From assembly GCF_003019035.1 (NCBI RefSeq), contig NZ_CP027447.1: a stretch of 64,000 nt of DNA. The stretch is one strand, 5' to 3'. Numbering within the stretch: position 1 is the first letter of the stretch; every line of letters starts with the position of its first letter. The translations under genes were made by a program, and so were the position numbers. Source of the DNA: Escherichia coli (GTDB lineage Bacteria; Pseudomonadota; Gammaproteobacteria; Enterobacterales; Enterobacteriaceae). Positions 14,763 to 41,526 of this stretch are shown one piece after another. Below the pieces are notes generated by a model. The model worked only from the letters and a program-made list of their open reading frames with translations. It ran no database searches and was not told the DNA's origin.

Positions 14763-14940
14763 GGCTTACTTTCTCTGCTGTAATGGTATGGGTGTTTCTG
14801 TGCACGCAAATCCGGCTGTGACACAAGGTGAGGTATTAAATAGAGGGGGAGTGAAAGGGGCAAATTATTAATAGGGTGAAAAAATAATTAATCGATTAAT
14901 TGCTTAATGGGAGTTATTTTCGCCAATCAGTCTGCGGTCT

Positions 14941-14981
14941 GTCCCCTCGCCCCATCCGGGGAGAGGGTTAGGGTGAGGGGG
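14941..14981. repeat. GC-rich hairpin repeat unit in the lfiM-lafK divergent intergenic region
   Basis: CCCCTCGCCCCATCCGGGGAGAGGGTTAGGGTGAGGGG; same family as 5193 and 8476. Confidence 0.6.
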
Positions 14982-15134
14982 CATCACAGATGTCGAAATT
15001 AACAGTATTAATATCTAACTAATTGTTTACCATCAAATAATATTTTTATTATCGTTTAATTCGAACTTGTTAATCCCGCCGGTGATACGCTTCAGAACAT
15101 CCTGTTTTCTGTCGCTACTGATATCGTTCACCCT

Positions 15135-16121
15135 ATGTCTGAACTTATTGCAACTGCCGCTTCCAGCATTAACGCTTTTACTCTGGCAAAGCGTGTCGCC
15201 GCCTTTAACGTGCCGGTGCTCATTCAGGGCGAAACCGGTGCGGGCAAAGAGTGCGTGGCGAAATATATTCACACAGTCGCCTTTGGTGAAAATGAAAGCG
15301 CACCCTATGTCGGCGTGAACTGCGCGGCGATCCCGGAAAATATGCTGGAATCTACCTTATTTGGCTACGACAAAGGCGCATTTACCGGCGCAATTGCCAG
15401 CGTGCCAGGAAAAATGGAACTGGCGAATAACGGCACCTTATTACTCGATGAAATTGGCGATATGCCGCTGGCGTTACAGGCCAAAATATTACGCGTATTG
15501 CAGGAACAACAGGTTGAGCGATTAGGCAGCAACCGACAAATTAAACTCAATTTTCGCCTGATTGCCTGTACCAATAAAAACCTTGAACAGGAAGTTGCCA
15601 CCGGGCGTTTTCGTGAAGATCTCTATTATCGTCTGGCGGTGATTCCTATTACCATGCCGCCGCTGCGTGAACGTCTGAACGATATTATTCCGCTGGCAGA
15701 GTCATTTATTAAAAAATACTCCACGGTGCTGGTGAAAAATATCACCCTGTCGGAATCTACCCGCCGGGCGCTGCTCAATTACCGCTGGCCCGGCAACGTG
15801 CGCCAGCTCGAAAACGCCATTCAGCGTGGAATGATTTTAAATCGCGACGGCGTGATTTTCCCGGATGCCTTAGGCCTGCCGGAAACAGACGTTGCCGACC
15901 ACAGTGAACTGCAATGGCCTGTTCAGCCTGCCGTCCACATTGCCGAAACCAGCGATTTAGGCCAGCACGGACGAAGTGCGCAATATCAATATATCGCCGA
16001 CCTGATGCGTAAATATCAGGGCAACCGCAGCAAAATTGCCGACCTGTTAGGCATTACCCCGCGCGCACTGCGCTATCGACTGGCCTCCATGCGCAAGCAC
16101 GGTATCGAAGTTTTCTCCTGA
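15135..16121 (+). CDS. lafK: Sigma54-dependent transcriptional activator lacking an N-terminal receiver/regulatory domain (AAA+ core plus C-terminal HTH only)
   Basis: Walker A GETGAGKE 30 aa from the start, GAFTGA motif, C-terminal HTH (...IADLLGITPRALRYRL...); no in-frame upstream extension. Confidence 0.8.
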   Translation: MSELIATAASSINAFTLAKRVAAFNVPVLIQGETGAGKECVAKYIHTVAFGENESAPYVGVNCAAIPENMLESTLFGYDKGAFTGAIASVPGKMELANNGTLLLDEIGDMPLALQAKILRVLQEQQVERLGSNRQIKLNFRLIACTNKNLEQEVATGRFREDLYYRLAVIPITMPPLRERLNDIIPLAESFIKKYSTVLVKNITLSESTRRALLNYRWPGNVRQLENAIQRGMILNRDGVIFPDALGLPETDVADHSELQWPVQPAVHIAETSDLGQHGRSAQYQYIADLMRKYQGNRSKIADLLGITPRALRYRLASMRKHGIEVFS

Positions 16122-22052: not shown

Positions 22053-22155
22053 ATGTTTAAAAAATCGCGTTTTTTCGACATATCCCCAAAACATGTCGAT
22101 GGCATAAACGTATTCCAACGACATGTTTAAAAATCGCATTTTATCGACATATCCC
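22053..22155. repeat. Two imperfect 33-bp direct repeats 70 bp apart, containing a TCGACAT/ATGTCGA inverted motif
   Basis: ATGTTTAAAAAATCGCGTTTTTTCGACATATCCCC (22053-22087) and ATGTTTAAAAATCGCATTTTATCGACATATCCC (22123-22155); second copy overlaps the stop of the minus-strand transferase gene. Confidence 0.7.
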
Positions 22156-24612
22156 TGACGATTCCTTGCCCGCCAACGTCTCCACAATCACCATCGCCGC
22201 CCGTTCTCCCGCCTTGCCATCCATAAACGCATCGCAATAGTGATGACGAATCTTCGTAAGCCGCGCCTGCACCGCACCCCAGTCAAACGCCTCTGACAAC
22301 AAATAACGCAGTTCCGCAACATCATGAGCCACCGGCAATATTTCGCGGATTCGCTGGTCGGCGCTCTCCGGCGTGGAGTAGCTTTTCTCGCCGTCGAGCA
22401 ATTCACTCATGCCCGGAAAGTCGAGCAGGATCACCCGCTTATCGACATGGATAGCATCGAAAATAAAGCCGCTGTTATCGGTCAGCACGTAATCGGCCTT
22501 TGCCAGCAGCGCCAGCGTGTGGCGGGCGGAGTCGGTGCGCTGTTTTAAATGTCTGCGCGCGAGTGCCAGCGATGCAGTTTCTTCCGGGCGCGAGCAGGTG
22601 CCGTGGTGCAGTTTGCAAATCAGGTTCACATCATCGCTTAAGCGCCCCAATTTTTCTGCCCAGTGGGGCAGGGAGCTTAATGCGCCAAACGTTGGGGCGT
22701 AGAGCACCGTAGGTTTACGGGAATCGGGTTGAATATTTTCTGGCAGAATGCGGTCAAACGTGCCGTTATGCCAGGCGTCGAAGCGCGGGTTGCCGACTGC
22801 TTTTGCATTGCCGAAATGCGCCAGCGCCCGCTGGCTGTAGTGGCTGTAACACAAAATGCGCTGATAAAAACGGTTCCAGTCGGCGTGGTTCCACGTCTCT
22901 TTGGCTAAGCCGTACATGGCGCGAACGTTCACCGCTGCCAGGCCATTGAGCGCGGGCGTGTGGTAGGGGCTGACCAGGCATTTCACCCGCTGACCGTGTG
23001 CCTGCATTTCAGATAAGCGCATTCCTTTAAGCTGCGGATCGTCGATGCTTTTTAGCGTCTCCAGCATTTCATCCAGAAACGGTTTAAACACGCGGTCATT
23101 GATCACCAGTGTGCAGCTCTGCCCCTGCGCCTGTAGAGCGGTGATGATTGGGCGATACAGCGAGTAGTGGAATGAGGTTTCCATAAAAAAGCCGATGGTG
23201 TTGGCGATGGGGAATGCGGATGGTTTTGTAACTACGGGTAACTTATTGAAATAGTGACTAATGTTGTCGGTCACTTTTTTCTCGATGTCACTAAAGCCCG
23301 GTCGCTGATAACTAAGGCTCGGGTAACAGGCCAGCCATTTGTCGGCGCGCAGCAGCGGCTGCCAGCACTCTTCCAGCGAGTGCTCACCGTTGCCCATCTG
23401 CTGTGCCAGTTGCGGGTAGTAGCGGCTGTTCACCAGATAAGCACACACTTTGCGGCAGTCCCGCGCGTGCACCAGCCCCGGCAAACTTTTTAGCATCGTT
23501 CCCTGCGAAATTTCGCCGCCAAGGATCATCACCTGCCAGGGAATTTTCGCCAGGCTCGCCAGCAGCGTGTTCAGCACCTGAATATGTTTCTCCTGCTTGA
23601 GAATAACCGCGTCATCTTCCAGCAGCAGATAGTTTTGCCAGCCGTGCTGTTGCGCCAGGCGCAGCGCCTGCAAGTGCGACAGGCGGCGGCCCCGTTGACC
23701 GTTTTCATCTTCACAGGCGGCAAGGCGGGTGATTTTCTCGGGCGGAATATGCAGCAGTGCCAGTTCTTCACGGATCTGTTGTAAGCGATCCGGGCGTTTA
23801 TCCAGATTGATCAATACGACCTGATCGATCGCCTGATGGTTGATCGCCTGGTGATGAGTGGCGTTATGCAGACTCAGATAAGCATTGCGGAGCAGCGGAT
23901 CGCGGACGATATCCGTAAGCGCCGCGTTTACTGGCGTGCTGGCCCCGAGAATAAAGTCTTTATCAAAGGTGTTGTGGCTGTGCGAGATACACAAAATCGT
24001 GCGCTCGCCGGGCAGTTGTAGCGGGTTAGCGCTGAAATTGTCGGTGAAACTTTTCTCTTCGCCTAAATTGCAATCGTCATCGTAGCGGTGCTTTTTCAGG
24101 TAGTTACGGTGATAGCAAAAGGTGCCGTTGAGGATGTTATGCGGGCCGAAGCTGCGGCTTTGAAAGATGCGATTGATGTGGCTGTACCAGATGGGGATCT
24201 GGTCGGAACCGGAGATGAGCGCCCGGTTTTTTTGCATCATAGCGATGGTGTAAGAGATTTTATCTGCCGGGTAGTAGTCGTCATCGTCCATGCAGAGGAT
24301 GTATTCGCCGCGCGCCAGTTCGTTGAGCATATTGCGTTTTTTGCCCAGCGGCAGTTTTTCCGGGTGATGGATGTAGCGGATGTTGAAGGCTTCCTGTGTG
24401 CCATTGGTCAGGCGGTCGATGATGTGTTGATGGCTTTGCGGGGAATCGTCGAGGATGATGAGTTCGCGGCGGTCTGCCGGGTAGTCCTGATAGCGGTACA
24501 TATAAAGCAGGTACGGCAGGAATGCGCTGCGGTTCCAGGTTGGCGTGACGACGCTGACGAACGGTTTTTCGCGCTGGGTGGCGAGTGTTTTGATAATGGT
24601 TGGTGTTGGCAT
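22141..24612 (-). CDS. Three-domain transferase: N-terminal GT2-like, central GT25-like, C-terminal TagF/TagB-like CDP-glycerol glycerophosphotransferase domain
   Basis: GT2-like VSVVTPTWNRSAF...ILDDS...CMDDDDYY; GT25-like VVLINLDKRPDRL; TagF-like LYAPTFG and VLTDNSGFIFDAI motifs; start set at MPTPTIIK because the longer ORF runs into a repeat. Confidence 0.75.
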   Translation of the reverse strand: MPTPTIIKTLATQREKPFVSVVTPTWNRSAFLPYLLYMYRYQDYPADRRELIILDDSPQSHQHIIDRLTNGTQEAFNIRYIHHPEKLPLGKKRNMLNELARGEYILCMDDDDYYPADKISYTIAMMQKNRALISGSDQIPIWYSHINRIFQSRSFGPHNILNGTFCYHRNYLKKHRYDDDCNLGEEKSFTDNFSANPLQLPGERTILCISHSHNTFDKDFILGASTPVNAALTDIVRDPLLRNAYLSLHNATHHQAINHQAIDQVVLINLDKRPDRLQQIREELALLHIPPEKITRLAACEDENGQRGRRLSHLQALRLAQQHGWQNYLLLEDDAVILKQEKHIQVLNTLLASLAKIPWQVMILGGEISQGTMLKSLPGLVHARDCRKVCAYLVNSRYYPQLAQQMGNGEHSLEECWQPLLRADKWLACYPSLSYQRPGFSDIEKKVTDNISHYFNKLPVVTKPSAFPIANTIGFFMETSFHYSLYRPIITALQAQGQSCTLVINDRVFKPFLDEMLETLKSIDDPQLKGMRLSEMQAHGQRVKCLVSPYHTPALNGLAAVNVRAMYGLAKETWNHADWNRFYQRILCYSHYSQRALAHFGNAKAVGNPRFDAWHNGTFDRILPENIQPDSRKPTVLYAPTFGALSSLPHWAEKLGRLSDDVNLICKLHHGTCSRPEETASLALARRHLKQRTDSARHTLALLAKADYVLTDNSGFIFDAIHVDKRVILLDFPGMSELLDGEKSYSTPESADQRIREILPVAHDVAELRYLLSEAFDWGAVQARLTKIRHHYCDAFMDGKAGERAAMVIVETLAGKESSGICR

Positions 24613-24660
24613 GGTGTTTGGGTGAGTTAATGGGTGAATGTGATGAATGTGCGTGCTGAT

Positions 24661-24770
24661 GCCCTCACCCCGACCCTCTCCCACAGGGAGAGGGAGAAAA
24701 CCAGCGCCGATTTTAACACCGTGCTCGATCGGTTCCCTCGCCCCTTTGAGGAGAGGGTTAGGGGGAGGGG
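24661..24770. repeat. Two GC-rich hairpin repeat units (24661-24696 and 24735-24770) between the transferase gene and the upstream 309-aa gene
   Basis: CCCTCTCCC-ACA-GGGAGAGGG and CCCTCGCCCC-TTTG-AGGAGAGGGTTAGGGGGAGGGG; same family as 5193. Confidence 0.6.
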
Positions 24771-24790: not shown

Positions 24791-25720
24791 TCACGTCAGC
24801 AGCGAAAATGCTGACAGCAGCGGCTCTGCCGCACATAACGACTGGAGCTGCTGGCGAATCGCCGCAGCATTTTCACTCTCTCGCCAGCGTTCAAACACCG
24901 CAAAAAGGGCGAAAATATCCTCCTTCCGCAGCGGTGAACCATCCAGCGTCCATAAACTGATTAACGTGCGGATGAGATAAAAATCACACACCAGCGGGCA
25001 ATAATCTGCTCCGTCTGCCTGCCCAATCACGTCGTGATAAACGCGGTAAATCAGCCAGTTGCGCATCATCCACGGCGCGGCGGCAAAATGCTGTTGCCAG
25101 GTGGTTTGCCACTGCACCTTAAGCTGCTGTTGCAACAAAGCTTCGCTGTTGGCGTCATGCAACGTCAGCAAAGTCACCTGCAACGGTAGCGAGGCTTTGC
25201 GCGGGCTTTCCGGCAAAATCGACCAGTCAAACGCAAAACTCCCGAGCAGCGTCACCAGTTGGCGCGCCAGTTGTGGCACGGGTGGGAGTTGGGCGAACTG
25301 TGCCTGTAGCGTGCCTTTTTGTGCATGATCCCCCAGCGCCTGTGGCAGCGTTGTCAAGCGGGCAAGAATATCTCCGTCTCTGCCCGGCATTTTACTGGCG
25401 CGGGAGAGCAAAATCCCGACGGCATACAGGGAAAGCTCCGGGGTTAAATCGGGGAGCGTAAGGGTACTCAAAATTATCTGGTTGACTATCGCATCGCGCG
25501 CGGATAGCTCGGCGGCATTGTCTTCCACAGGGCGGTAGGTGAGCTGTAAATCAAAGGCCCTGGCATCGTTGAGCACCGCTTTGCAACTTTCAATATCGGT
25601 CAATGCCAGGCTCTGGCGAATCTCATTCTTCCAGACCTTGCGGACGTACAAAGGCGAATCGGGATATTGCGTCATAAAATTGCGCACGTATTCCGGTTCG
25701 TAACATTCAATAAAACTCAT
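24791..25720 (-). CDS. Hypothetical protein (309 aa) in the Flag-2 variable/modification region
   Basis: Long ORF co-oriented with lfgN and the transferase gene; no motif I can assign; start chosen at the first ATG (ORF-track start is TTG). Confidence 0.6.
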   Translation of the reverse strand: MSFIECYEPEYVRNFMTQYPDSPLYVRKVWKNEIRQSLALTDIESCKAVLNDARAFDLQLTYRPVEDNAAELSARDAIVNQIILSTLTLPDLTPELSLYAVGILLSRASKMPGRDGDILARLTTLPQALGDHAQKGTLQAQFAQLPPVPQLARQLVTLLGSFAFDWSILPESPRKASLPLQVTLLTLHDANSEALLQQQLKVQWQTTWQQHFAAAPWMMRNWLIYRVYHDVIGQADGADYCPLVCDFYLIRTLISLWTLDGSPLRKEDIFALFAVFERWRESENAAAIRQQLQSLCAAEPLLSAFSLLT

Positions 25721-25847
25721 AGGTGGCTTCCAGTCTTTATTACTTTGCGGAATGTGCAATAAGCGTGCCGGGAATTTTTGTAATCAAAAACAAGGGATTG
25801 AGAATCAGGCGGAAAATCCGTTTCCGCGATGGGGGAAGGAATTGTCG

Positions 25848-27414: not shown

Positions 27415-27430
27415 TGGCACAGCGATTGCA
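27415..27430 (+). promoter_or_regulatory. Sigma54 (-24/-12) promoter upstream of lfgB
   Basis: TGGCAC-AGCGA-TTGCA, exact match to TGGCAC-N5-TTGCW. Confidence 0.7.
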
Positions 27431-31775: not shown

Positions 31776-31793
31776 GGCCGAAATGTCGGATGC

Positions 31794-31825
31794 GACGCTG
31801 ACGCGTCTTATCCGACCTACAAGAG
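31794..31825. repeat. REP-like palindromic element inside the lfgG-lfgH spacer
   Basis: GTCGGATGCGACGCTGACGCGTCTTATCCGAC. Confidence 0.7.
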
Positions 31826-34142: not shown

Positions 34143-35519
34143 ATGGACATGATTAACATCGGCTACAGCGGCGCATCAACCGCGCAGGTAGAGCTGAACG
34201 TCACGGCGCAAAACACCGCCAACGCCATGACCACGGGCTACACCCGTCAGGTGGCGGAGATCAGCACCATCGGCGCCAGCGGTGGTTCGCCGAACAGCGC
34301 CGGTAACGGCGTGCAGGTCGACAGCATTCGCCGCGTCTCTAACCAGTATCAGGTGAATCAGGTGTGGTATGCCGCCAGCGATTACGGCTATTACAGCACC
34401 CAGCAGGGGTATCTCACGCAACTGGAAGCGGTACTGAGCGACGATAACAGCAGCCTGAGCGGCGGCTTCGATAACTTCTTCGCCGCCCTTAACGAAGCGA
34501 CCACCAGCCCCGATGATTCCGCCCTGCGCGAACAGGTGATCAGCGAAGCCGGGGCGCTGTCGTTGCGTATCGACAACACGCTGGATTACATCGACTCGCA
34601 AAGCACGGAAATCATCAGCCAGCAGCAGGCGATGGTGTCGCAAATCAACACGCTCACCAGCGGTATCGCCAGCTATAACCAGCAAATCGCCCAGGCTGAA
34701 GCCAACGGTGATAATGCCTCCGCGCTGTATGACGCCCGTGACCAGATGGTGGAAGAGCTTAGCGGGATGATGGATGTGCAGGTCAATATCGACGACCAGG
34801 GCAACTACAACGTCACCCTGAAAAACGGTCAGCCGCTGGTGAGCGGGCAACAAAGCTCGACCATCGCGCTGGAAACCAACGCCGACGGTACGCCGACCAT
34901 GTCGCTGACGTTCGCTGGCACCACCTCGACGATGACTACCGACACCGGCGGTTCATTAGGCGCACTGTTTGATTATCAAAACGACGTGCTGACGCCGCTG
35001 ACCGACACCATCAACAGCATGGCGTCGCAGTTTGCCGATGCGGTCAACAATCAACTGGTGCAGGGCTACGATCTCAACGGTAACCCCGGCGAGCCGCTGT
35101 TTATTTACGATGCCAGCAATGCCGATGGCCCGCTGACCGTTAACCCGGATATCACCGCCGATGAACTGGCGTTCTCCAGTTCGCCGGATGAAAGCGGCAA
35201 CAGCGACAACCTCCAGGCGCTGATCAATATCTCCACCGAACCGCTGGAGATAGCCAACCTTGGCAGCGTGACGGTCGGGCAGGCGTGCTCGTCAATCATC
35301 AGCAATATCGGCATTTACAGTCAGCAAAATCAGACGGAAGTCGATGCCGCGTCCAATGTCTATTCCGCAGCGCAAAACCAGCAGAGTAGCGTCAGCGGCG
35401 TCAGCATGGACGAAGAAGCGGTGAACCTGATCACCTATCAACAAATTTATGAAGCTAATCTGAAAGTCATTTCCGCCGGGGCCGAGATTTTCGATTCGGT
35501 GCTGGAAATGTGCAGCTAA
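34143..35519 (+). CDS. lfgK: Hook-associated protein 1 FlgK homologue
   Basis: 458-aa ORF with axial-protein N-terminus (...GYSGASTAQVELNVTAQNTANA...). Confidence 0.85.
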   Translation: MDMINIGYSGASTAQVELNVTAQNTANAMTTGYTRQVAEISTIGASGGSPNSAGNGVQVDSIRRVSNQYQVNQVWYAASDYGYYSTQQGYLTQLEAVLSDDNSSLSGGFDNFFAALNEATTSPDDSALREQVISEAGALSLRIDNTLDYIDSQSTEIISQQQAMVSQINTLTSGIASYNQQIAQAEANGDNASALYDARDQMVEELSGMMDVQVNIDDQGNYNVTLKNGQPLVSGQQSSTIALETNADGTPTMSLTFAGTTSTMTTDTGGSLGALFDYQNDVLTPLTDTINSMASQFADAVNNQLVQGYDLNGNPGEPLFIYDASNADGPLTVNPDITADELAFSSSPDESGNSDNLQALINISTEPLEIANLGSVTVGQACSSIISNIGIYSQQNQTEVDAASNVYSAAQNQQSSVSGVSMDEEAVNLITYQQIYEANLKVISAGAEIFDSVLEMCS

Positions 35520-35533
35520 GCGGGAGCGCGAAA

Positions 35534-36463
35534 ATGCGAGTAACCACCCAACAAACCTACGTCTCGATGACGCAAAGTTTTAATAATCTCTCCGGCTCTC
35601 TGGCGCATGTGGTCGAGCAGATGGCAACCGGCAAGGAAATTTTGCAGCCGTCGGATGACCCGATCGCCGCCACGCGTATCACCCAGTTGAACCGCCAGCA
35701 GTCGGCGATTGAGCAGTATCAAAGCAATATTGACTCTGCGTCGGCGGGGTTAAGCCAGCAGGAGTCGATTCTCGATGGCGTCAACAACAGCCTGCTGGCG
35801 GTGCGCGACGACCTGCTGGAAGCGGCGAACGGCACCAATACCGCTGATTCGCTCGCAAGCCTCGGGCAGGATATTCAGTCGCTCACCGAATCGATGGTGG
35901 CGGCGCTCAATTATCAGGACGAAGACGGGCATTACGTGTTTGGCGGTACCATCAACGATCAGCCGCCGATTGTGGCGGTGGACGATGATGGCGATGGCGT
36001 GACCGACAGCTATAGCTATCAGGGCAACAGCGACCACCGCCAGACCACGGTGTCGAACGGCGTGGAAGTGGATACCAACGTGGCGGCGAGCGATTTCTTC
36101 GGCAGCAATTTAGATGTGCTCAACACGCTCAATTCGCTCTCTCAGGAGTTGCAAGACCCAAACGTTGACCCGGCCGATCCGCAGGTGCAGAGCGATATTC
36201 AGAACGCCGTTGATGTGGTGGACACCGCTTCGGACGATCTCAACGCCTCGATTGCGTCGCTTGGCGAGACGCAGAACACCATGTCGATGCTGAGCGATGC
36301 GCAGACCGATATTTCTACCTCTAATGATGAGTTGATTGGTTCTTTACAGGATCTCGATTACGGCCCGGCGTCGATCACCTTTACCGGACTGGAAGTGGCA
36401 ATGGAAGCTACCCTCAAGACTTACTCGAAAGTGAGTGAGTTGAATTTATTCAGCGTTCTCTAA
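35534..36463 (+). CDS. lfgL: Hook-associated protein 3 FlgL homologue
   Basis: 309-aa flagellin-like junction protein; start at MRVTTQQ. Confidence 0.8.
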   Translation: MRVTTQQTYVSMTQSFNNLSGSLAHVVEQMATGKEILQPSDDPIAATRITQLNRQQSAIEQYQSNIDSASAGLSQQESILDGVNNSLLAVRDDLLEAANGTNTADSLASLGQDIQSLTESMVAALNYQDEDGHYVFGGTINDQPPIVAVDDDGDGVTDSYSYQGNSDHRQTTVSNGVEVDTNVAASDFFGSNLDVLNTLNSLSQELQDPNVDPADPQVQSDIQNAVDVVDTASDDLNASIASLGETQNTMSMLSDAQTDISTSNDELIGSLQDLDYGPASITFTGLEVAMEATLKTYSKVSELNLFSVL

Positions 36464-36479
36464 CTCTTTCAGGAACCGT

Positions 36480-37457
36480 ATGCAGGTCGGACTTACTTCT
36501 TCGTCACTCACCACCGGCGGCGCGCATAGCGCTGCGGTATCGTCGTCAACCGTTGCGCCCACTCAGGCGGTGCGGCAAAAACTCCCGGCGACGGCGAGTG
36601 AATATCCGGCCTCGCCGCTGATTACCACTCGCCCGCAGCGTTACAGTGTGCAGCTTAACGATCAGCTCACCACGTTGCAGCAGGCGGATCACTATCTCGG
36701 GCAACTGGAACAGCAGTTGCTCGATTACCGTCACAGCCAGCGTAAGGGCGGGCAGGCGCAGAGTTCAGCGCTGATGCAGATGCTGGACAAACGCACCGCG
36801 CTTTCCGGCGGCGCGGTGGACCGCCAGTTGCAGCCAGTGTTGCAGGGGGAAGCGCGGGTGACTTTTCACTCGCCGGATCTGACGAATCTGGTACACAATC
36901 CCACGCCGGGAACGCGCATGTTCAGTGTCACTGGCGGGCGGCAGACCCAGCTTTCGGCGGTGATGCTGTCTGAGGATGACAGCGCCGCGCAGTATCAGAC
37001 GCGGCTGACCAACGCTCTGCGCCGCGTGGGTGTGCAACTGCATCAGCAAGCGGACGGCATCAGCTTCTCCACCACTGAAAAACAGTGGCCCCATATCGAG
37101 CGCACCTTAAGCGTGCGCACCGATGGCGATAAGTCGGCGTTTATGCCGCTGAAAACCTTTGCCGAACCGTCACAGGCGGACCGCTTAGCGCAAAGCCTGC
37201 AACAAGGCGGGGCGGGAATTTCTCAAATGCTGGAAAACATTAATCAGCAGCGCGCGCAAATGGCGGTGCAGCAGGAAAAAGCGCGGCAGTTGATCGACGG
37301 CATGTCCCGCTTCCCGCAAACGGAAAGCGCCGTGCAGGCGTCGGAAAATCTCGGCGGCGTGCTGGATAGCGCCAATCATAACTATCAAGTTTTATTGCAG
37401 GCGGTGAACGGTCAGGCACGGATTTCCAGCCAGACGGTGAGGAGTTTATTGGGGTAG
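36480..37457 (+). CDS. lafW: Hypothetical Flag-2 protein (325 aa), no recognisable family
   Basis: Ser/Thr/Gln-rich ORF in the position given as lafW in the Flag-2 nomenclature as I recall it. Confidence 0.6.
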   Translation: MQVGLTSSSLTTGGAHSAAVSSSTVAPTQAVRQKLPATASEYPASPLITTRPQRYSVQLNDQLTTLQQADHYLGQLEQQLLDYRHSQRKGGQAQSSALMQMLDKRTALSGGAVDRQLQPVLQGEARVTFHSPDLTNLVHNPTPGTRMFSVTGGRQTQLSAVMLSEDDSAAQYQTRLTNALRRVGVQLHQQADGISFSTTEKQWPHIERTLSVRTDGDKSAFMPLKTFAEPSQADRLAQSLQQGGAGISQMLENINQQRAQMAVQQEKARQLIDGMSRFPQTESAVQASENLGGVLDSANHNYQVLLQAVNGQARISSQTVRSLLG

Positions 37458-37547
37458 TGTTATTGAAAATCAATCAAATGAGGCTGTTGTAAAAAATCAT
37501 TTCAGTGCAGAATATGCTATAACTCTACGGGTTAAAAAAGGAATGAA

Positions 37548-37691
37548 ATGACCACTCTCAAGCAACTGATGGATAAGCAAAGCCCTGAAAGTCGTAGGCG
37601 AATAATAAAAAAAGCAGAACGAATCCGGCAAACTATCATTAATAAAAAGCTAGAGTTACCAATAACTAAAACTATCAGCAATTCCGATTGA
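37548..37691 (+). CDS. Possible small ORF (47 aa, basic)
   Basis: ATG with AAGGA RBS 5 nt upstream; MTTLKQLMDKQSPESRRRIIKKAERIRQ...; AT-rich with rare codons, so may not be translated. Confidence 0.25.
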   Translation: MTTLKQLMDKQSPESRRRIIKKAERIRQTIINKKLELPITKTISNSD

Positions 37692-37710
37692 TTTCATTCG
37701 GGATTTTCGT

Positions 37711-37746
37711 TGGCCGGATAAGACGCGTTTAGCGTCGCATCCGGCA
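37711..37746. repeat. REP element
   Basis: GGCCGGATAAGACGCGTTTAGCGTCGCATCCGGCAT. Confidence 0.8.
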
Positions 37747-37760
37747 TATATTGGCACTCG

Positions 37761-38603
37761 TCAGCATTTCTGCACAGTATTTAACAACTTCTCTAAATTC
37801 TGATACATCGCGCGATTAATATCGCTGTTCTGCCAGCCTTCCACATTAAAAGTTAATTGCCAGCTACCATTGCACTGGTTGCGCAGAACAATATCACTTT
37901 CCAGTCGGTTACGAACATATTTATAATAAGTTGTCATTGTCATATTATGCGCTGACAATAAATTATCGAGTTTGTCTTTTCCTGGTTCGAGGGTTTGTGA
38001 CAGTAACGGTACGGAATTATTTTCCTTTCCAGAACTAAGATGAAATATTTTTATTCTTGGACTGTTAATTGACTCTTTTACCAGTTGCGGGGCGTCAGGT
38101 GTACTTTTCAAGTGTGAATACCCCACGGTCGAGCCAATAAATATAACAGCCGCGGTCAACGCTAACCCCATCAGTCCTTTATGTTTTTTTCTAACTGGTA
38201 CAGGCGGTGTTGTCGAAGATATCTCTTCTGACACAGTTTCCTGTACCTGGTCGGTAATCATCAGCTTTTCCGCAGGCGATAACTCCGGCAAAGACACATA
38301 CTCTTTATTGCACAAGTAACCTTTCTTCGGAATTGTTTTAATAATGTTCTGTTGTTTGCCATCATCGTCGATAGCAACGCGTAACGCATGGATCGCCGTC
38401 GGCAGGCTGTTACCGCCGACTATGCGGTTCTTCCATACTTCGGCACATAAATAAGATCGCGATAAAACCACATCGGCATTTTTTGCTAATGTTTCCAGCA
38501 AAATAAAATGGTATTCGCCGAGACGACGTGTTTCACCCGTTTCGCAATGTATTAAGGCATTAAGCGACGGGTCCATCCGCCAGTTGTTGATAATAATACT
38601 CAT
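37761..38603 (-). CDS. lafZ: ToxR/CadC-like membrane-anchored transcriptional regulator (N-terminal winged-helix domain, one TM helix, periplasmic C-terminal domain)
   Basis: Winged-helix core ...LSRSYLCAEVWKNRIVGGNSLPTAIHALRVAID...; hydrophobic segment GLMGLALTAAVIFIGSTVGY; gene is markedly AT-rich. Confidence 0.75.
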   Translation of the reverse strand: MSIIINNWRMDPSLNALIHCETGETRRLGEYHFILLETLAKNADVVLSRSYLCAEVWKNRIVGGNSLPTAIHALRVAIDDDGKQQNIIKTIPKKGYLCNKEYVSLPELSPAEKLMITDQVQETVSEEISSTTPPVPVRKKHKGLMGLALTAAVIFIGSTVGYSHLKSTPDAPQLVKESINSPRIKIFHLSSGKENNSVPLLSQTLEPGKDKLDNLLSAHNMTMTTYYKYVRNRLESDIVLRNQCNGSWQLTFNVEGWQNSDINRAMYQNLEKLLNTVQKC

Positions 38604-39089
38604 AGTTGAGTTTACCTTAGCAAGGGATAAATGTTTCCTGATAGTGCTTTGCATAAAGCACAGTCTTATACGTCCCTGAGAAGATGATTTTTCTGCGTGA
38701 TAATTAATATTTTATGGTAATAGGATTATTCTTAATCACTATATGGCGTGGAAATGTAACGAAATGACAGGACAGGTACAATAGCCAAATGTGTACTATT
38801 TGCAACGCAATGTAAATTTTGGCATCAGTACATTGAGAACAAAACGCGATAATTGATGACAATCTTAACTATATCAAGCATTTGATAAAGACATATTTTG
38901 ATACCTGGCCATGTGGCAGATATTGCTAATAATCTTTTTATCTGAATTTAAACTCTGCTTTTTTTTAGCTAAAAGTGGCATCGGATAATACGTGGCGAAA
39001 AAATTTTAACGGCGATTTTAAGTTTGCTCCTGAGGTGTCGTTTTTACAGGGTATCGAAACGAAAACGATTAATCCCAAGGAGCAGTATC

Positions 39090-40004
39090 ATGTTATCTAT
39101 TAACACCAATAACGCCTCAATGGCCGCCGTTAATGCAATCAGCAAAAGCAGCTCTTCTCTGTCTACATCTATGGAACGCCTGGCAACGGGTAACCGGATT
39201 AACTCTTCTGCCGATGACGCAGCGGGCAAACAAATTGCTAACCGTCTGACAGCACAGTCCAGCGGTATGGGTGTGGCGCTGAGCAACATCAATGATGCCA
39301 CCGCGATGCTGCAAACCGCCGACAGCATGTTCGACGAAATGTCTGATGTGCTGGGTCGTATGAAAGACCTGTCAACTCAGGCAGCGAACGGCACCTACAG
39401 CGACGACGATCTACAGGCGATGCAGGACGAATACGACGAACTGGGTCAGCAGATGTCTGACATGCTGCAAAACACCACTTACGGCGGCACCAACCTGTTC
39501 GGTGTTTCCGGTACCAGCAACACCGGTACTGACGGTCTGTTCCAGAGCGCAGTAACTTTCCAGGTGGGCGCGGAATCTTCCGACACCATGACCGTGAATA
39601 TTTCAAGCCAGCTGAATACCCTGGTGACGGATCTTTCTGCTATCAGCAACTCCTTCAGTGCGGATCAGGCTGACACCACTGGCACCGCAGGCGTTTCTGG
39701 CGGTACTGAGCTGACTGCGTCTGGCTCGGCTAACCAGATGATTACCAGCATTTCGACCGCGATGGATGATGTTTCGCAGATCCAATCCAAGCTGGGTGCG
39801 TCTATTAACCGTCTGAACGACACTGCCAACAACCTGACCAGCATGCAGGACAACACCGAAGTCGCTATCGGTAACATTATGGATACCGACTACGCGACGG
39901 AAGCGTCCAACATGACTAAACAGCAGGTGCTGATGCAGACCGGCATCACCATGCTGAAACAGTCCAACAGCATGTCCAGCATGGTTTCCAGCCTGCTGCA
40001 GTAA
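39090..40004 (+). CDS. lafA: Lateral flagellin
   Basis: 304-aa ORF with flagellin N-terminus (MLSINTNNASMAAVNAI...RLATGNRINSSADDAAG) and C-terminus (...MTKQQVLMQTGITMLKQSNSMSSMVSSLLQ); AGGAG RBS. Confidence 0.9.
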   Translation: MLSINTNNASMAAVNAISKSSSSLSTSMERLATGNRINSSADDAAGKQIANRLTAQSSGMGVALSNINDATAMLQTADSMFDEMSDVLGRMKDLSTQAANGTYSDDDLQAMQDEYDELGQQMSDMLQNTTYGGTNLFGVSGTSNTGTDGLFQSAVTFQVGAESSDTMTVNISSQLNTLVTDLSAISNSFSADQADTTGTAGVSGGTELTASGSANQMITSISTAMDDVSQIQSKLGASINRLNDTANNLTSMQDNTEVAIGNIMDTDYATEASNMTKQQVLMQTGITMLKQSNSMSSMVSSLLQ

Positions 40005-40014
40005 TGGCGGACTT

Positions 40015-40045
<31 letters not shown>

Positions 40046-40162
40046 ACGAACAACACCGCCTGCGGGCGGTGTTGTGCTTTCTGCGGCAGGCGTATTTCCG
40101 CCAGACCGGAAATGGCTTTTCCGCCTGTTTTTCAATCTATTGATTCTTCACATAAAAAATAT

Positions 40163-40177
40163 TGGCACGCCTTTTGC
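40163..40177 (+). promoter_or_regulatory. Sigma54 (-24/-12) promoter upstream of lafB
   Basis: TGGCAC-GCCTT-TTGC, about 30 bp upstream of the lafB start. Confidence 0.7.
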
Positions 40178-40209
40178 CAATAACCTGACATCGTTATCCG
40201 GAGTCATCA

Positions 40210-41526
40210 ATGATCAACCCAAGAACCATTGCGCAAGAAATCGCCTATGCGGATGTTGCCACTCAGGCGGCAAACTTGCAGGAGAAGCAGAGCGAGCTGG
40301 ATGCTGAAAGCAGCGGCCTGGACTCGCTCAGCTCAGCGTTGAGCGATTTTCAGAGCGCCGTTGACGCGCTGAACAGCGATACTGACGGCCCGGTGACGTT
40401 TGCCGCCACCAGCAATAATGACTCGGCGACCGTTTCCGCTAACTCGCAGGCACAGGCGGGAAGCTACTCGTTTTTCGTTGAGCAACTGGCGCAGGGGCAG
40501 CAAACCACGTTCAGTATGGGCGACGACGCCTTTTCCGCCACCGGCACTTTTGAACTGACGATGGGCGACAGCACCATGGATATTGATCTGTCGGCGGCGG
40601 ATCAAAACGGTGACGGCGACGGTTTTATCGACGCCAGTGAACTGGTGAATGCGATTAACGACTCTGATGACAATCCGGGCGTGTCGGCGGCACTGGTAAA
40701 AACCGACGGCACCACCACCATTATGCTCACCTCCGATAGCACCGGGGCGCAGAGCGCATTTTCGGTGAGCGTAACGGGGCATGACACCAGCAACGATAGC
40801 GCCAGCGCGCCCGTTGCCACGGATGTTTCCTCCGCTCAGGACGCGATTATTCATCTCGGCAGTGCCACAGGGCCTGAGATCACCAACAGCAGCAATACGT
40901 TTGATGATGTGATCCCCGGTGTCACCATGACTTTCACCGAAGTCAGCGATTCTGACAGCGACCTCACTACCTTTAACATTAGCGAAGATTCCAGCGCCAG
41001 CCAGGAGAAAGTGCAGACCTTTGTCGATGCCTATAACACCCTGATCGATACGGTTGATTCGCTAACCACCCACGGTGATGACAGTACCAGCGCCGGGGTA
41101 TTTGCAGGCGACGCAGGACTCAGTTCACTGGCGAACCAGCTCGATGATATCGCCCATGCCAGCTACAACGGGGTATCGATTGTTGACTATGGCATCACGC
41201 TTGATTCTCACGGCCACTTACAGATTGACTCCGACCAGTTCAACGACGAAATGGCGAAAAATCCTGACGGTCTGACCTCTATTTTCGTTGGCGACAACAG
41301 CATGGTGGCACAGATGGACGACCTGATTAACACCTACACGGACTCCAGCAACGGCATCATCACCCTGCGCCAGCAGAACATTGACGATCAGATGAGCAAA
41401 ATTCAGGACGAAGGCGATCAGCTTACTGATACCTATAACGCCAACTACGACCGTTATCTCGAGGAGTACACCAACACGCTGGTCGAGGTGTACACCATGA
41501 AAGCCAGCATGGCGGCATTCGCGTAA
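40210..41526 (+). CDS. lafB: Flagellar filament cap protein FliD homologue
   Basis: 438-aa ORF immediately after the flagellin gene. Confidence 0.8.
   Translation: MINPRTIAQEIAYADVATQAANLQEKQSELDAESSGLDSLSSALSDFQSAVDALNSDTDGPVTFAATSNNDSATVSANSQAQAGSYSFFVEQLAQGQQTTFSMGDDAFSATGTFELTMGDSTMDIDLSAADQNGDGDGFIDASELVNAINDSDDNPGVSAALVKTDGTTTIMLTSDSTGAQSAFSVSVTGHDTSNDSASAPVATDVSSAQDAIIHLGSATGPEITNSSNTFDDVIPGVTMTFTEVSDSDSDLTTFNISEDSSASQEKVQTFVDAYNTLIDTVDSLTTHGDDSTSAGVFAGDAGLSSLANQLDDIAHASYNGVSIVDYGITLDSHGHLQIDSDQFNDEMAKNPDGLTSIFVGDNSMVAQMDDLINTYTDSSNGIITLRQQNIDDQMSKIQDEGDQLTDTYNANYDRYLEEYTNTLVEVYTMKASMAAFA

Follow-up and report, generated by a model that had tools for sequence, protein, structure and literature searches.

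LafZ of the Escherichia coli Flag-2 locus is probably a ToxR/VtrA-class co-component regulator orphaned by loss of its partner gene

The window analysed here is a segment of 64,000 nucleotides (64 kb) of the Escherichia coli chromosome (contig NZ_CP027447.1) which contains a complete Flag-2 locus, and the gene under study is lafZ, located between lafW and the lateral flagellin gene lafA. LafZ is probably a ToxR/VtrA-class co-component regulator, which was orphaned by deletion of its partner gene and acts without the ligand-binding half of the system. That a ToxR-like membrane regulator is encoded within Flag-2 is already known, and the gene already has its name; according to later papers, LafZ entered the first account of Flag-2, from 2005, as a "putative transmembrane regulator". 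In the later literature lafZ, lafK and lafW are diagnostic Flag-2 markers, LafZ is the least conserved Flag-2 protein with an average identity of 38.9%, and a non-motile strain without lafZ is noted. Flag-2 is found in about a quarter of the complete E. coli genomes, and LafZ has been only a name since 2005. New in this analysis are the demonstration that E. coli LafZ is an orphan and the reinterpretation of the commonest cargo gene of the lafW-lafZ interval as its sensor partner.

LafZ-family loci were taken from one genome per species, 80 loci in all, and in 69 of these a same-strand open reading frame (ORF), mostly encoding about 145-195 residues, starts within the end of lafZ. The overlap with the lafZ stop is 20-29 nt in most loci, and the product carries an N-terminal signal or hydrophobic (transmembrane) segment. 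The partner proteins are of two sequence subtypes, homologous to each other (hhalign probability 94%), and neither subtype matched any family in Pfam. For an AlphaFold fusion model, each LafZ periplasmic domain was joined through a Gly/Ser linker to the ectodomain of the partner encoded beside it, and the paired alignment made in this way served as input; the Enterobacter cloacae pair gave a predicted template modelling score (pTM) of 0.81, with a predicted local distance difference test score (pLDDT) above 90 for both halves and about 44 for the disordered linker. The partner in the relatives is a membrane-tethered protein with a predicted lipocalin-like fold of the VtrC/ToxS type. For VtrA and ToxR, too, the gene of the partner (VtrC or ToxS) is located directly downstream. 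The superfamily of co-component signal transduction, founded on VtrA/VtrC, comprises cassettes of two rapidly evolving, overlapping genes, with a lipocalin-like protein as the partner (Kinch et al. 2022, PMC9214523). The LafZ family fits this superfamily because of the overlapping partner ORF and the paired fusion model in the relatives. In a comparative study from 2020 the lafW-lafZ interval was named "VR2", present in 81% of the loci with an average of 0.6 kb, and described as one mostly hypothetical low-GC protein that was read there as horizontally acquired cargo. Because position and size match, we infer that the commonest VR2 "cargo" of enterobacterial Flag-2 is the LafZ co-sensor gene. 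The gene lafZ lies between lafW and lafA in 58 of the 80 loci, and outside any Flag-2 context in the other 22. Some cassettes outside Flag-2, in Erwinia and Yersinia massiliensis, are followed by a convergent ORF of 331-351 aa without a Pfam family (L030 7305-8360, L070 7331-8341 and L081 7419-8414, all on the minus strand), and these three products have a signal peptide and a common N-terminal motif, C..R...E.tVC....L.WLD.

The partner is absent from the window. A tblastn search with 69 genuine partner proteins against the whole 64 kb gave no credible homologue, nor any toxS-like gene, and lafZ is not followed by an adjacent, overlapping gene of the VtrC/ToxS type. None of the Escherichia loci (L003-L006) or Pseudocitrobacter loci (L007-L009) has the partner either. 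The gene is retained in Citrobacter, which has the nearest relative of LafZ, and in every deeper lineage, so that by parsimony it was lost in the Escherichia/Pseudocitrobacter lineage. The first-pass annotation of this DNA, made from the sequence alone, had described LafZ as a one-component regulator, which is right for the gene content of the window but not for the family, ancestrally a two-gene co-component system whose partner is deleted here. In place of the partner there is a hairpin of the repetitive extragenic palindromic (REP) type (Table 1), conserved in the Escherichia and Pseudocitrobacter relatives, and its sole Rfam match is a sub-threshold one to the REP-derived naRNA4. The hairpin has no T-tract, a scan for intrinsic terminators found none, and the element is likely a transcript 3' end or stabiliser. 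A second REP-type hairpin is located within Flag-2, at the lfgG/lfgH junction (31785-31816).

The gap between lafZ and lafW measures 303 bp in the window and about as much in L003, which has the spacer version of the window; in L004-L009 it is 56-62 bp. In the window the left flank at 37458-37700 is a 243-bp remnant of a helix-turn-helix (HTH) pseudogene, situated outside the unit of lafZ itself. The pseudogene is absent from L004-L009, and this version of the spacer is found in 46 of the 1142 E. coli genomes that match the spacer. A toxin/antitoxin pair at the lafW-lafZ site has been reported in strain 042, and the pseudogene is probably a remnant of that pair.

The domain architecture of LafZ was examined by Pfam, hydropathy, searches of PDB and an alignment of homologues. 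The sole Pfam domain is Trans_reg_C, covering residues 25-97 (E 1.4e-13), and a receiver domain is absent. Among solved structures the DNA-binding domain is closest to ToxR of V. cholerae (8b4b, 3.4e-8), followed by CadC (5ju7, 2e-6). The linker that follows varies widely in length among the homologues, and a strong hydrophobic helix is present at the matching place in every one of them; the RKKHK motif ahead of this helix predicts an N-in/C-out topology. An N-terminal OmpR/PhoB-type winged helix and one transmembrane helix had both been proposed beforehand and were recovered here, and the periplasmic domain, then put at about 130 aa, is present as a predicted tail of 115 aa. An exhaustive search for full-length relatives gave about 44 clusters at 50% identity, and 48 of these relatives were aligned. 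Cys244 and Cys280, both periplasmic, are present in every aligned sequence, and Trp257 in almost all. Neither Pfam nor PDB contains a sequence relative of the periplasmic domain, also with the 48-sequence profile as the query, and the domain shows the predicted order beta2-alpha-beta3-alpha, which is the published definition of the VtrA/ToxR periplasmic fold (PMC9214523). Membership in the CadC family was considered and rejected, as LafZ reaches 33.9 bits with the CadC equivalog model, far below the cutoff of 400, and its periplasmic part has only 115 aa; in CadC of E. coli, which acts together with LysP, the periplasmic sensor comprises two subdomains and about 320 aa. Because of the fold, the best PDB match and the missed CadC equivalog, LafZ is considered ToxR/VtrA-like and not CadC-like; of the earlier label "ToxR/CadC-like", the ToxR-like architecture and the closest solved DNA-binding relative stand, and a CadC-like sensor does not. 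The start codon at 38603 agrees with the RefSeq annotation of the orthologues and with the N-termini of the 48 homologues. An in-frame ATG upstream, at 38654, would give a protein of 297 aa, and was discarded as it has a poor Shine-Dalgarno sequence and disagrees with the homologue N-termini.

Orphan LafZ is under purifying selection and is not decaying. The gene is carried by 1271 of 5426 complete E. coli genomes with 90-98% identity, and it is intact (coverage at least 80%) in 1265 of the 1271. The ratio of nonsynonymous to synonymous substitutions (dN/dS) is 0.07-0.25 for the whole gene and 0.00-0.06 for the winged helix. In the periplasmic domain it is 0.09-0.17 without the partner versus 0.08-0.29 in the lineages that contain it, ranges that are indistinguishable, and near-neutral evolution is seen only in the linker (dN/dS 0.3-1.3) and the membrane helix. 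The conclusion that LafZ is not decaying is drawn because the gene is full-length in nearly all carriers and dN/dS is low in both the winged helix and the periplasmic domain. The best lafZ identity to the window among the complete E. coli genomes is 97.7%, although fadE is 100% identical to that of strain SCU-301. The locus nearest to the window overall (L003, 97.7% over 7.4 kb) comes from a metagenome-assembled genome that carries the label Citrobacter sp.; the contig is probably from Escherichia and was binned wrongly.

Several known systems resemble LafZ in part. VtrA/VtrC, the bile-acid receptor of Vibrio parahaemolyticus (PDB 5kev/5kew), is a fast-evolving cassette like that of LafZ. Outside the winged helix the similarity of VtrA to LafZ is undetectable at the sequence level (10-13% identity), the LafZ cassette is embedded in a flagellar locus whereas VtrA/VtrC is found in a type III secretion island, and a VtrC-like gene is absent from the window. 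The two invariant periplasmic cysteines of LafZ are found in ToxR but not in VtrA, and both ToxR and LafZ have one of them at the extreme C-terminus. ToxR of the Vibrio ToxR/ToxS system also equals LafZ in overall size and topology, the latter being predicted for LafZ. ToxR is still not an orthologue, the similarity being confined to the DNA-binding domain and undetectable in the periplasmic part, and strict ToxR boxes are absent from the regions upstream of lafK and between lafZ and lafA. The E. coli cassettes YqeI/YqeJ and GrvA/FidL have both the superfamily and the species in common with LafZ; the former is tied to the ETT2 secretion-system island and the latter to LEE regulation, each with a horizontally mobile locus (PMC9214523). 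Unlike LafZ of the window they keep the lipocalin partner, and, compared by published description, the models of YqeI and GrvA are without the C-terminal helix that LafZ, VtrA and ToxR have (PMC9214523). The same paper makes no mention of flagella, and lists two uncharacterised Yersinia cassettes, YP3283/3282 and YP3564/3565, which may be orthologous to that of LafZ.

That lafZ and both its flanks are more AT-rich than the flagellar neighbours had been noted beforehand, and the GC scan agrees, with the left flank being partly the HTH pseudogene. The GC content of lafZ is 0.420, and that of third codon positions (GC3) is 0.434 versus 0.57-0.77 for all other Flag-2 genes, while the two spacers have 0.380 (37458-37760) and 0.348 (38604-39089). 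Together they form a 1632-bp island of GC 0.391, the lowest of all equal-size segments in the 64 kb (mean 0.533, sd 0.043). The same is seen in 57 of the 58 loci with Flag-2 context, where the GC content of the lafZ homologue is below that of the flanks (mean difference -0.077, for GC3 -0.135), and in 21 of the 22 family members outside Flag-2. Low GC is an old, maintained trait of the family and not a sign of recent import into this genome, and since the trait is ancient the AT-richness is no evidence of recent acquisition. No integrase or transposase is found beside the island, only the pseudogene and the REP element, and the patchy presence of a recently acquired island is not observed, the 243-bp pseudogene remnant being the only strain-variable part.

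The history of the island is nevertheless separate from that of its surroundings. Between the window and Pseudocitrobacter, lafZ has a saturated synonymous divergence (dS 2.7-4.1) with dN/dS about 0.07-0.10, whereas the neighbouring proteins are 92-100% identical with dS 0.25-0.39, and DNA identity drops from 87-99% to 38-82% between about 37800 and about 39000, that is in lafZ and the lafZ-proximal part of the intergenic region. Within Escherichia the dS of lafZ is no higher than that of its neighbours, which makes a locally raised mutation rate unlikely. The simplest reading of the island is allelic replacement of a resident gene by recombination and not a de novo insertion; it is the fast-evolving gene of the cassette with its promoter region, and a recombination mosaic in this lineage. 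Of the earlier proposal that the AT-richness suggests separate acquisition, the separate history is supported by dS and the breakpoints, but not a recent acquisition, as the gene occupies the same slot in 58 loci and is low in GC in 57. The LafA, LfgK, LfgL and LafB proteins of Pseudocitrobacter (L007-L009) are 95-100% identical to those encoded at 34143-41526 in the window, with dS mostly 0.25-0.39 and at most 0.57 for lafB. The Flag-2 loci of Pseudocitrobacter and E. coli are too similar for different genera, which implies a recent transfer of the locus between genera.

As had been stated earlier, lafZ is divergent from lafA, and the intergenic region between them is 486 bp. An alignment of 14 such regions from six genera revealed conserved blocks in otherwise unalignable AT-rich DNA, and of these GAAATGTAACGAAAT and ATTTGCAACGCAATGTAAA are candidate operator/promoter elements for lafZ. 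The region contains 11 sigma70-like sites versus 5.5 expected. A lafA promoter of the sigma28 type is conserved across genera, and was missed by a scan with the E. coli sigma28 consensus. A possible sigma54 promoter in the region (TGGCAG-N4-TTGCT at about 38911) was rejected for its wrong spacing, and no site with at most two mismatches is present. Elsewhere a perfect sigma54 -24/-12 site precedes lfgB (27415-27430, plus strand), and a site with one mismatch precedes lafB (40163-40178, plus strand), and from these motifs the filament genes lafA (sigma28-type) and lafB (sigma54) appear to be in different promoter classes. The sigma54 activator LafK has no N-terminal receiver or sensor domain, its AAA+ domain starting at residue 6, which leaves room for a gate upstream of LafK; LafZ is not identified as that gate, and lafK is a candidate downstream target of LafZ. 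The region upstream of lafK (14763-15134) is AT-rich with a GC-rich, palindrome-like stretch at about 14940-14985.

The following mechanism is proposed from the sequence and the model. LafZ consists of a winged helix in the cytoplasm, a single transmembrane helix and a small alpha/beta sensor domain predicted to be periplasmic, which is probably locked by a disulfide between Cys244 and Cys280. In most Enterobacterales lafZ is the first gene of a two-gene co-component cassette with the partner overlapping its stop, and by analogy, with lower confidence, the regulator would be switched on when a hydrophobic ligand is bound by the partner. In Escherichia and Pseudocitrobacter the deletion of the partner, with the REP hairpin now in its place, leaves LafZ as an orphan without the ligand-binding half. 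Its activity would then, also with lower confidence, probably be set by abundance, possibly with H-NS antagonism, by the disulfide or stability state, and by self-association. With moderate confidence, LafZ is seen as an activator of transcription that heads the Flag-2 hierarchy or stands close to its top, acting on lafK and/or the lafZ-lafA region. The strict lafW-lafZ-lafA synteny in 58 of the 80 loci is counted as support for this link to Flag-2, as are the use of lafZ as a Flag-2-specific marker, the non-motile strain without it, and the absence of a sensor domain from LafK.

A number of observations weigh against this proposal. The heterodimer is supported by one single-chain fusion model without a predicted aligned error, and a search of the literature for an experimental paper on LafZ found none. 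VtrA/VtrC has been described as an obligate heterodimer (PMC9214523), and orphan LafZ might for that reason be inactive; Flag-2 is also reported as non-functional in some E. coli strains. With 22 of the 80 cassettes away from Flag-2, the family is not intrinsically flagellar. Neither GAAATGTAACGAAAT nor ATTTGCAAC..AATGTAAA recurs near lafK or elsewhere in the window, where each is found once, and for this reason no shared operator stands behind the link from LafZ to lafK. ToxR boxes (TNAAA-N5-TNAAA) occur 5 times versus 2.5 expected, and none of them is in the lafZ-lafA or lafK regulatory regions.

In a rival model built on the first-pass annotation, LafZ would be a self-contained ToxR/CadC-like one-component sensor, recently and separately acquired, silenced by H-NS and gating the locus via lafK. 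We regard this as unlikely, even if the island is the deepest compositional trough of the window with a history discordant with its flanks, the partner gene is absent from this genome, LafK has no sensor domain, and the intergenic region, with a GC content of 0.35 and A/T tracts, should be a typical H-NS substrate. The slot is the same in the 58 Flag-2 loci, which belong to at least five enterobacterial families, and the low GC in 57 of them marks an ancient trait; the sensor is VtrA/ToxR-like and not CadC-like, the ancestral state is two genes, and the island is flanked by a pseudogene and a REP element and not by mobility genes. Neither H-NS chromatin immunoprecipitation (ChIP) or expression data on Flag-2 nor data on lafK were found in the searchable literature.

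That Escherichia LafZ is instead a decaying remnant, non-functional since the loss of an obligate VtrC-like partner and in line with the cryptic or defective Flag-2 of many E. coli strains, would agree with the obligate VtrA/VtrC heterodimer and with the reported destabilisation of ToxR without ToxS, and also with the Flag-2 frameshifts and lack of swarming reported for strains 042 and W and with the existence of truncated lafZ protein clusters. This is improbable when the gene is intact in all but six of the E. coli carriers, the whole-gene dN/dS is low, the periplasmic domain is as constrained as in the presence of the partner, and conservation is complete for the two cysteines and the winged helix. 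Most improbable is a regulon outside the flagellum, for example envelope or adhesion genes, with the position of lafZ being a recombination-prone cargo hotspot. The 22 members outside Flag-2, which have the partner, adjoin unrelated genes, for example those of GGDEF-EAL proteins, chemoreceptors and ATP-grasp enzymes. Cargo is known to accumulate in the lafW-lafZ interval, and other co-component systems control secretion systems and adhesins (PMC9214523), but the position between lafW and lafA is strictly kept in 58 loci across deep divergence, the intergenic blocks shared with lafA are conserved, and lafZ is in use as a diagnostic Flag-2 marker.

The reading of LafZ as an orphaned co-component regulator could be taken further, and Flag-2 of Enterobacterales would then be switched on by LafZ together with a lipocalin-like partner that senses a lipid of the host or of a surface (bile acids, for instance), the ligand-binding half having been lost in E. 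coli and its nearest relatives. This extension is speculative and rather doubtful. If it is true, the loss of the partner would explain the absence of known Flag-2-inducing conditions in E. coli, and the partner in trans, or overexpression of LafZ, would awaken the cryptic E. coli flagella. Co-component systems have until now been linked with virulence loci, and the result would extend them to the control of motility.

Table 1. Features of lafZ and its surroundings in the 64-kb window (partner ORFs are numbered within their own loci).
Feature	Position	Strand	Description and basis
lafZ CDS	37761-38603	minus	280 aa + stop; ToxR/VtrA-class membrane-anchored transcription factor; ORF list, RefSeq orthologues, Pfam
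Winged-helix DNA-binding domain	38304-38603	minus	aa 1-100; OmpR/PhoB-type, cytoplasmic; Pfam, PDB matches 8b4b and 5ju7
Linker	38178-38303	minus	aa 101-142; low-complexity Ser/Thr/Pro/acidic, ending in RKKHK (positive-inside); sequence
Transmembrane helix	38109-38177	minus	aa 143-165, single; Kyte-Doolittle maximum 1.85, only averaging window above 1.6
Periplasmic sensor domain	37764-38108	minus	aa 166-280 (115 aa), predicted; beta2-alpha-beta3-alpha VtrA/ToxR fold
Invariant Cys244	37872-37874	minus	Alignment of 48 divergent homologues
Invariant C-terminal Cys280	37764-37766	minus	Alignment of 48 divergent homologues
REP-type palindromic hairpin	37713-37745	minus	Directly 3' of lafZ, where other genera carry the partner gene; predicted RNA folding energy -22.8 kcal/mol, z -4.0
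Truncated HTH (antitoxin-like) pseudogene	37548-37691	plus	Decayed insertion between lafW and lafZ; annotated in NZ_CP054353 as an incomplete HTH protein
lafW	36480-37457	plus	Flag-2-specific putative hook-associated protein, convergent with lafZ; literature; no Pfam family
lafA	39090-40004	plus	Lateral flagellin, divergent neighbour of lafZ; RefSeq orthologue annotation; 97-100% protein identity in Escherichia and Pseudocitrobacter
lafZ-lafA regulatory region	38604-39089		Divergent; GC 0.348; conserved blocks in otherwise unalignable AT-rich DNA
Conserved block GAAATGTAACGAAAT	38751-38765		10-bp-periodic direct repeat
Conserved block ATTTGCAACGCAATGTAAA	38798-38816		
Conserved block ATATTGCTAATAATC	38920-38934		
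lafA promoter TAAGTTT-N11-GTCGTTTT	39019-39044	plus	sigma28-type; cross-genus conservation
lafA Shine-Dalgarno AAGGAG	39077-39082		
lafK	15135-16121	plus	sigma54 activator; Pfam Sigma54_activat from residue 6, then AAA lid and HTH_8
Partner ORFs in relatives (examples)	L010 6941-7417; L071 6884-7351; L030 6854-7318		66 further loci

LafW is the second fastest-evolving protein of the cluster after LafZ, with 67% identity to Citrobacter versus about 90% for LafA and LfgK. Variable region 1, between lfiJ and lfgN, carries as cargo an 847-aa family-2 glycosyltransferase (22141-24684, minus strand) and a 322-aa protein without a Pfam family (24791-25759, minus strand), and both are presumably involved in flagellin modification.

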